Source: Ostreococcus lucimarinus (lineage: Eukaryota). From it: a stretch of 64,000 bases of DNA. A program made the translations under genes and the position numbers. Location of the stretch: NCBI GenBank assembly GCA_000092065.1, contig CP000582.1; one strand, 5' to 3'. Below, one piece after another: positions 7,314 through 55,425 of this stretch. The stretch's first letter is position 1; each line of letters starts with the position of its first letter. The notes under the pieces were generated by a model. That model did not search any database and had not been told where the DNA came from. It worked only from the letters and a program-made list of their open reading frames with translations.

Positions 7314-7415
7314 GGATCATTTACATCAGTGCGATATCAACTGTCGTACTGAGCTAAATGGGACGGACACCAAGTTTTGTAATATCCAATCAACGAAGCA
7401 ACTTCAATTGTTCCA

Positions 7416-8639
7416 TCAAACTGTTTGAGATGCAACGTCTACATCGTCGAAAAGTAGCAAAAGTTCGTCTAAGCGCATAGTGGTCACTTCTAAATCTTTT
7501 AGTACCTCTCTTTTAAGTGGCTTGCTAGACCACATTCGCTCGTTCTTTACAATTCCTGTGCGATATCGCCGTACCTCAAAGAGCTTTCGTAAATGAACAT
7601 TTGTCAAAGCCTGAATAAGTTCACGTTTTACAGTCTTTTCGACGTCAGAACAGTCCACACGCCACAGATAGTTCGTTCTTGATGGAGCATGATCATGCGT
7701 GCGGGCTATTTCCTGCATCTGCACGTATCCAAATTTCAACAACTTGTAAAGAATGTCTCGAGTATCCTTCACGGGAACCATGGATAATTCAGCAACCTGT
7801 TTCTGCTCAAGTTGATTTCGAATCAAAACTCTAAAAATACGAAGAGCCTGTGCTCCTAAACGTGTTTTGATAACCGCTTCGACATGCTTTTGCCGTCTCA
7901 AATGAACGTCGACGTCACTCGCCGAGCGTTCCACACTCAAAAGTCTGGTGTCTTCTTCTTTCAGGCGTCCAAGCGCAGCATCGAGCGAACGCGGATTTAG
8001 ACGCAGAAAACTCGATGAACTATCGTTTTCTTGCGTTTCCGATGGCATGTGTTCCTGATCTGTTCGCGTACAGGCTCTGTCCAAGTTCACACATGTTTTG
8101 TCGTAGCGTACACGTTGCAGCAGCTGGATTTCTAAGAGGTCACAAATCGCTTTATGAACATCGGCACTGCGTAGAGAGCTTTCTGAAGGCACTTGTTGCA
8201 CGATTGACATGATTTGATTCACCGACATCGCTCCATGTAATGCAATCGTAAGAAGCACCATAAAGTGCTCTTGTGTATGCTTGGTTTTTGCATAAAGCGC
8301 ATATCTGGAGAACCTCTGTCTACACCTTATGTAAGCCAGGTTGATCCTGTACGTATAAACTATTCGCGATGATGTCGGCTTCTGTGACTTGTGCACCGAG
8401 GTGATGCAACCATGCTTGATTAAAGTATACAAGATAGCACCACACGTCCGTCGTCGGAAAGGCACCAAGTGCACAATATACTCGAAGGTTAAATTGTCTC
8501 GTTGCGAAACCGCTTCAAAGACTTTTCGGGCTGCCAGACCAAACTCATCTTGGATTATTTGGACAGCGAGATCTATTTCCTTTCGTGAATGCATACCGTG
8601 AGCGGCACGAAGAGCTGTGAGTCGAAGGGGTTCGCGCAA
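7416..8639 (-). CDS. RNA polymerase III subunit RPC3/RPC82-like.
   Basis: N-terminal AVQIIQDEFGLAARKVFEAVSQRDNL...CGAILYTLIKHGCITSV parallels the first winged-helix region of POLR3C/RPC82. At 407 aa it is shorter than usual, so it may have more exons. Confidence 0.4.
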   Translation of the reverse strand: MREPLRLTALRAAHGMHSRKEIDLAVQIIQDEFGLAARKVFEAVSQRDNLTFEYIVHLVPFRRRTCGAILYTLIKHGCITSVHKSQKPTSSRIVYTYRINLAYIRCRQRFSRYALYAKTKHTQEHFMVLLTIALHGAMSVNQIMSIVQQVPSESSLRSADVHKAICDLLEIQLLQRVRYDKTCVNLDRACTRTDQEHMPSETQENDSSSSFLRLNPRSLDAALGRLKEEDTRLLSVERSASDVDVHLRRQKHVEAVIKTRLGAQALRIFRVLIRNQLEQKQVAELSMVPVKDTRDILYKLLKFGYVQMQEIARTHDHAPSRTNYLWRVDCSDVEKTVKRELIQALTNVHLRKLFEVRRYRTGIVKNERMWSSKPLKREVLKDLEVTTMRLDELLLLFDDVDVASQTV

Positions 8640-54992: not shown

Positions 54993-55165
54993 ACTCGCGA
55001 TTGCGAGTGGAAACAGCCAGCTACTATGCTGCTATCCACCTATCCACCCGCAAAGTCAGGGTCACCGACGTACAGTCCACCGTGACTGCTCAGATATTCA
55101 GGCAGGGAAAAAAATTATGCGGGCGCGCCATCTCTATCTATTGGAGAAAATTTTCACACAATACG

Positions 55166-55254
55166 ACTTAAATCCACCCCCTTAGACCACTCGGGCATCC
55201 TGGCGCTTTTTCCTTCTTTTTCGTCTTTCTGCCAGGAATGGGGTTCGAACCCAT
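55166..55254 (-). tRNA. Candidate circularly permuted tRNA-Leu(UAA) gene. The 3' half (T-arm ATGGG-TTCGAAC-CCCAT plus acceptor TCCTGGC-A, plus coordinates 55230..55254) lies upstream of the 5' half (acceptor GCCAGGA, D-arm CCC-GAGTGGTCTAA-GGG, anticodon stem-loop GTGGA-TTTAAGT, plus coordinates 55166..55204). A 25-nt spacer separates them.
   Basis: Read on the minus strand. The two acceptor strands are perfectly complementary. The anticodon loop is TTTAAGT (anticodon TAA, U33, G37). A T4 run follows the 5' half (AAAATTTTCT). A 7-nt complementarity (AATACGA / TCGTATT) links the leader of the 3' half to the trailer of the 5' half, as expected for a bulge-helix-bulge processing site. Confidence 0.35.
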
Positions 55255-55425
55255 GCGCACATTGTACAGTGGGTAGTTCGTATTTGACGAGTCACGAAGA
55301 CAGTGCAGCCCACACACCAAAGTTGAACTATGTTGCTACGGTGTTCTTGACCCCTCCGTGCGAGGTCGCTTGTCGCCACACTGACTCCAGCGTCACTCTC
55401 CGGTGGTAGAACTTGAGGACTTGCA

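Follow-up and report, generated by a model that had tools for sequence, protein, structure and literature searches.

The window, a 64,000-nt stretch of Ostreococcus lucimarinus DNA, carries on its minus strand a circularly permuted nuclear tRNA-Leu(UAA) gene of type II with its junction at 37/38, a reading to which we assign a probability of about 0.93. The order 3′ half, spacer, 5′ half, which an earlier note on this DNA had taken as the mark of a permuted tRNA-Leu(UAA) gene, is borne out by ARAGORN on the rejoined halves and by a match to the published list of such genes. The original description is reportedly that of Maruyama, Sugahara, Kanai & Nozaki (2010, Mol Biol Evol 27:1070). Soma 2014, drawing together the results of Maruyama et al. 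2010, gives O. lucimarinus four permuted genes in its Table 1, the Leu(TAA) entry reading II (37/38), 25 bp, no intron (PMC3978253). The likeness to algal permuted tRNA genes seen by the earlier note is correct. Since anticodon, 37/38 junction, 25-bp intervening sequence and absence of an intron all agree, as does the organism, and no difference is detectable, the window locus is the O. lucimarinus gene published in 2010 and was already known.

The ORF at 94-1206 of the window encodes a protein identical to XP_001416191.1 of O. lucimarinus CCE9901, and further window ORFs share 90% clusters with O. lucimarinus proteins. According to Michely et al. 2013, the O. lucimarinus genome has 44 tRNA genes including 4 permuted ones; the annotated conventional tRNAs are insufficient for all codons and the permuted genes complete the set (PMC3673656). 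Colinear gene expression has few exceptions; permuted tRNA genes are among them, and they are overlooked by standard annotation. The gene itself brings no new biology. Our modest additions are the covariation between its halves, evidence that the commonly invoked strict bulge-helix-bulge (BHB) motif is not apparent at its junction, and the host-like copies found on giant-virus contigs; modest leads lie in the viral copies, in the conserved motif at the junction and in a position in a candidate mating-type region.

Anatomy of the locus and the rejoined cloverleaf

Read on the minus strand, the locus comprises the following elements.

55274-55167, minus: gene extent, 3′ half through 5′ half
55275..55284, minus: junction-adjacent 5′ leader (from the sequence and from motif conservation across 17 contexts)
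55284-55278, minus: leader AATACGA, complementary to the trailer
55279-55275, minus: leader motif R-A-A-C-U, here GAACT, positions -5..-1, family-conserved
55274-55230, minus: tRNA 3′ half, A38 to discriminator A73, 45 nt (ARAGORN cloverleaf, covariation)
55274, minus: A38
55273-55269, minus: anticodon-stem 3′ strand CCCAC
55268-55255, minus: long variable arm, 14 nt, 4-bp stem
55254-55238, minus: T-arm ATGGG-TTCGAAC-CCCAT (CATGGGTTCGAACCCCAT = 55255-55238)
55237-55231, minus: acceptor 3′ strand TCCTGGC
55230, minus: discriminator A73
55229-55205, minus: intervening sequence (spacer), 25 nt, GAAAGACGAAAAAGAAGGAAAAAGC, purine-rich
55204-55167, minus: tRNA 5′ half, G1 to G37, 38 nt (sequence, ARAGORN)
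55204-55198, minus: acceptor 5′ strand GCCAGGA, 7/7 complementary to TCCTGGC
55195-55179, minus: D-arm CCC/GAGTGGTCTAA/GGG, A-box-like, 11-nt loop
55177-55173, minus: anticodon-stem 5′ strand GTGGA
55172-55167, minus: anticodon loop TTTAAG
55170-55168, minus: anticodon TAA
55166-55147, minus: 3′ trailer, TCGTATTGTGTGAAAA, then TTTT
55166-55160, minus: trailer TCGTATT, complementary to leader AATACGA
55150-55147, minus: TTTT run, +17..+20, probably the RNA polymerase III terminator

The T-arm, the acceptor 3′ strand with its discriminator A, the 25-nt spacer followed by a fully complementary acceptor 5′ strand, the class-II-like D-arm, the GTGGA anticodon arm with its UAA anticodon and the T4 run all lie on the minus strand where the earlier note had placed them. 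The leader runs just past the range that it reported, to 55284. Its junction coordinates for the 3′ half (55254->55230) need correction: A38 is at 55274 and the mature tRNA corresponds to 55204->55167 plus 55274->55230. The leader sequence ahead of A38 reads ...CAAATACGAACT on the minus strand, and a B-box-like element, GGTTCGAACCC, sits inside the T-arm of the 3′ half.

Joining G37 (55167) to A38 (55274) yields an 83-nt product that ARAGORN calls a class II tRNA-Leu(taa), 86 nt long with CCA. The stems of the rejoined cloverleaf measure 7 bp (acceptor), 3 bp (D), 5 bp (T) and 4 bp (variable) in the ARAGORN model, A31·C39 is the sole non-pair, and U8, G18G19, U33, T54-T55-C56 and A73 are all seen. 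The product has the long variable arm, the 3-bp D-stem with a large D-loop, the A73 and the Leu anticodon UAA of a class II tRNA-Leu. Folding of the 161-nt precursor returns the permuted cloverleaf as the minimum-free-energy structure, with the spacer closing the acceptor stem and the transcript ends paired.

In the native order, neither ARAGORN nor Rfam (at the gathering threshold and also at E<=10) found a tRNA, a silence that is expected because the gene is permuted and that we do not count as evidence against it. The same blank results, even at E<=10, agree with the earlier claim that there is no ordinary 5′ half upstream of the T-arm and no 3′ half downstream of the anticodon arm. We also screened both strands of the window for complementary acceptor-like 7-nt pairs lying 1-90 nt apart, rejoined the candidates and submitted them to ARAGORN with introns allowed. 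A single candidate among 7,852 gave a tRNA, namely the permuted Leu(UAA) locus, and six shuffled windows with ~7,400-7,700 candidates each gave 0 calls. The locus is far above chance expectation, and the case shows that a permuted tRNA gene can be recognized from raw sequence where ARAGORN and Rfam gave nothing.

Related genes and covariation between the halves

We scanned metagenomes for a T-loop with a Leu-type D-arm 27-57 nt further on and obtained 120 loci, from which removal of ordinary tandem tRNA genes left 17 further permuted Leu(UAA) contexts. The resulting 18 contexts, window included, contain five distinct mature sequences, every one of 83 nt. The spacers of the relatives range from 11 to 34 nt and are unrelated in sequence, as are the distal leaders and the trailers. 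An environmental O. lucimarinus-like contig (L060, Ga0182093_1376193), 99.8% identical around the gene, has a 26-nt spacer with one more A in its A-run, and spacer length is therefore variable within the species. The two loci with a 20-nt spacer (L034/L079) fit the published Micromonas pusilla entry. Around the copies in cellular and viral relatives, ARAGORN detected no further tRNA gene. Next to the L062 copy lies a gene whose protein clusters with an O. tauri protein.

We computed covariation on an alignment of the five distinct mature sequences, in which 96.7% of the cloverleaf cells are paired. Compensatory changes on both sides occur in 10 of the 24 pairs, including six of the seven acceptor pairs and pair 27:43. 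None of 500 shuffles matched the observed percentage of paired cells, the numbers of double-change pairs and cells or the covariation score, the observed count of further pair types was reached by 10/500 shuffles, and sliding the partner columns made pairing collapse to 24-45%. Because the acceptor and anticodon stems each take one strand from each half and covary, the two halves are shown to evolve as one molecule. At the level of sequence, this is strong evidence that they are conserved as one functional unit.

Four loci show synteny; in L035/L071, L047 and L015, the gene has the neighbors that flank it in the window, with amino-acid identities of 67-74%. Since the neighbors are syntenic, the gene is an ortholog kept across divergence at the level of species or of mating-type alleles.

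The A-C mismatch at 31:39 that the earlier note had pointed out is present in the window copy. Its interpretation as a sign of weakness or decay does not hold, as A31·C39 is conserved in four of the five distinct permuted sequences. Judging from this distribution, the mismatch is a conserved lineage feature and not decay, nor is it peculiar to permuted genes. The same combination (GTGGA...CCCAC) was also observed in tRNA-Leu(UAA) genes of conventional order in unrelated organisms, where they lie downstream of another tRNA (L023/L040/L057).

The conventional tandem tRNA-Leu genes of L021/L036, L115 and L129 have acceptor strands that are mutually complementary across a gap of 13-24 nt. L129 is a giant-virus contig of 23% GC with tandem conventional tRNA-Leu genes. 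In the duplication-and-loss model of how permuted genes arose, such tandems are the 'duplication' state.

Junction, transcription and the candidate processing pathway

The leader pentamer R-A-A-C-U directly before A38 is conserved in the family (the window and 17 related contexts), with the remaining leader unrelated, and leader position -6 is never U. Positions -3..-5 (AAA/AAG) are complementary to U32-U34 in 15/15 Ostreococcus-type and viral contexts. Nearest-neighbor energetics do not account for the motif in the window copy. If -3..-5 paired with U32-U34, C-2, U-1 and A38 would be left as a 3-nt bulge containing the 3′ cleavage site, a possible relaxed motif. Such a fold would resemble that of eukaryotic pre-tRNAs with introns, the substrates of the Sen endonuclease, in which an anticodon-intron pair is accompanied by a 3′ bulge.

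The 7-nt complementarity of leader and trailer that the earlier note had singled out is real in the window: seven Watson-Crick base pairs form between -10..-4 and +1..+7, a helix that 95 of 5000 shuffled leaders (1.9%) reached. It does not, however, produce a strict bulge-helix-bulge geometry, and relatives do not conserve it. A 7-bp Watson-Crick helix is confined to the window and L060, and we rejected the leader/trailer helix as a family feature, as the best helices of the relatives (G·U allowed) are no better than those of shuffles. A strict hBHBh′ at the junction is not predicted; the energies of the explicit structures that we evaluated (-2.8 kcal/mol for a BHB-like fold vs -10.6 for the plain leader/trailer helix) disfavor the canonical geometry.

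T-runs occur 10-25 nt past G37 in nearly all family members. In the window, the 25-nt spacer lacks a T-run and one is present downstream of the 5′ half. T-runs after G37 and none in the spacer are consistent with one RNA polymerase III transcript. In the 90 nt upstream of A38 that we searched (in the window, the segment 55320-55364 on the minus strand), most cellular relatives carry a TATA-like hexamer whose distance from A38 is fixed at -46..-48 although the flanks are unrelated (L004/L111, L015, L035/L071, L062, L064/L074 and L065), and no such element was found at -46..-48 in the window copy, L060 or L047. We do not treat the element as strictly defining, because a review calls the green-algal upstream element 'ambiguous' and reports it before only 'some' genes (PMC3978253). 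The B-box-like element precedes the A-box-like element, a reversed order seen in all permuted genes, and canonical TFIIIC-directed initiation would therefore not yield the full precursor.

For transcription, cleavage sites, circular intermediate and enzymes, we infer the following pathway. A single RNA polymerase III transcript would comprise the leader, the 3′ half, the 25-nt intervening sequence, the 5′ half and the trailer, ending at the T4 run. This precursor would fold as a cloverleaf in which the 25-nt loop ('acceptor loop') closes the acceptor stem and the transcript ends form the anticodon stem. The tRNA-splicing endonuclease would cut after G37 (37|+1) and before A38 (-1|38), and tRNA ligase would join G37 to A38, producing a circular intermediate that retains the spacer. 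RNase P and tRNase Z would then take out the 25-nt loop, CCA would be added, and the end product would be an 83-nt tRNA (86 nt with CCA) reading UUA/UUG. A circular-intermediate pathway followed by RNase P and tRNase Z is the literature model for red and green algae; circular intermediates have been detected for some green-algal permuted tRNAs, and 'some' of the green-algal permuted genes, not all, have been verified by northern blot or RT-PCR (PMC3978253).

The same anatomy could be read as a non-functional, decayed relic of two tandem tRNA-Leu genes, the first reduced to its 3′ part and the second to its 5′ part. Near-identical conventional tRNA-Leu tandems 13-24 nt apart do exist elsewhere (L021/L036, L115 and L129), the tandem state is the proposed evolutionary precursor of permuted genes (PMC3978253), and the window copy shows the A31·C39 mismatch and lacks a clear TATA-like element. 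Decay is nevertheless hard to reconcile with exon halves that are nearly invariant across lineages next to a spacer, leader and trailer that have wholly diverged, with compensatory changes that preserve pairing between the halves in the acceptor and anticodon stems, or with an arrangement kept in synteny at ~70% flanking-protein identity. Conservation extends to the A·C mismatch, the T-run of the terminator and the junction motif, and we consider a relic very unlikely.

Slightly smaller still is the probability that we give to a split tRNA of the Nanoarchaeum kind, whose halves would be transcribed apart and then joined in trans without passing through a circle. The A-box-like element of the 5′ half could in principle place an RNA polymerase III start within the spacer, and the missing TATA-like element upstream of the window copy fits such a scheme. 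Set against this, the spacer has no T-run terminator, the spacers of relatives are as short as 11-15 nt, too short for a promoter and terminator of their own, and circular intermediates have been detected for green-algal permuted tRNAs (PMC3978253). A chance juxtaposition of tRNA-like motifs could appeal to nothing but the blank native-order results of ARAGORN and Rfam, themselves expected of a permuted gene; it is refuted by the covariation and by the shuffle controls (one window match against none), sits badly with a widespread family, and has a probability close to nil. A permuted gene, probably transcribed as one precursor, is the reading that we retain.

Viral copies, genomic setting and other permuted systems

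An IMG/VR scan recovered permuted Leu(UAA) genes with an 11-nt spacer on giant-virus contigs. Their locations, and those of metagenomic copies with the same spacer length, are as follows.

L122, 7238-7295, minus: viral copy
L126, 2632-2689, plus: viral copy
L124, L125, L130, L133, L134, L141 and L143: further viral copies
L002/L005/L017/L051 and L092: metagenomic copies with an 11-nt spacer

The viral genes fall into two sequence types, one with acceptor GCCAGGA and a G-C pair at 49:65, the other with acceptor GTCAGTG. On one giant-virus contig, the adjoining genes encode a ribonucleotide reductase, an SNF2 helicase, a YqaJ recombinase, an RNase III and a patatin-like protein. Such genes around the viral permuted copies are typical of prasinoviruses.

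GC content is 45-48% throughout the window (1-64000) vs a genome average of ~60%, and all loci of cellular relatives with the permuted gene have 44-48% GC. A low-GC candidate mating-type region has been described on the big outlier chromosome (PMC8557840). Because its GC content is far under the genome average, the window probably belongs to this region, the big outlier chromosome being chromosome 2.

Our data lead us to a joint reading that we put forward tentatively, at somewhat below even odds. The permuted Leu(UAA) gene would be a widespread Mamiellales ortholog, apparently situated in the low-GC, candidate mating-type part of the outlier chromosome; at least two probable prasinovirus lineages would have captured it still permuted, with an 11-nt spacer; and the junction would be set by R-A-A-C-U and not by a canonical BHB, which would suggest a ruler-type eukaryotic endonuclease acting on an anticodon-intron-like pair instead of recognition of a BHB. 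Were this true, permuted Leu(UAA) would extend beyond the two published algae, and the comparative picture may exceed the literature.

For the Bathycoccus prasinoviruses BpV1/BpV2, whose hosts belong to the same order, Michely et al. 2013 describe a permuted tRNA (PMC3673656), the one earlier report known of such a gene in viruses. The main text does not specify the permuted tRNA and lists a 'Leu-AAG' (PMC3673656). The giant-virus copies found here may correspond to, or extend, the BpV1/BpV2 permuted tRNA.

The red-algal permuted genes reported in 2007, which include a type I Leu(TAA) and a type II Leu(CAG), share their architecture and proposed pathway with the window gene. The red-algal Leu(TAA), however, has its junction at 20/21 together with a 37/38 intron, whereas the window gene has its junction at 37/38 and no intron. 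These red-algal genes also regularly carry a TATA-like element within 50 bp upstream, which the window copy lacks.

Among green algae, Micromonas pusilla has a permuted tRNA-Leu(TAA) of type II with a 20-bp intervening sequence (PMC3978253). Amino acid, anticodon, junction type and the 83-nt length are shared with the window gene. The two nevertheless differ in sequence: the acceptor stem of the Micromonas-type genes (L034/L079), GAATCTG/CGGATTC, departs from that of the window gene in six of seven pairs, their 31:39 is a normal U-A pair, and their leader motif is GUCA where the window gene has AACU.
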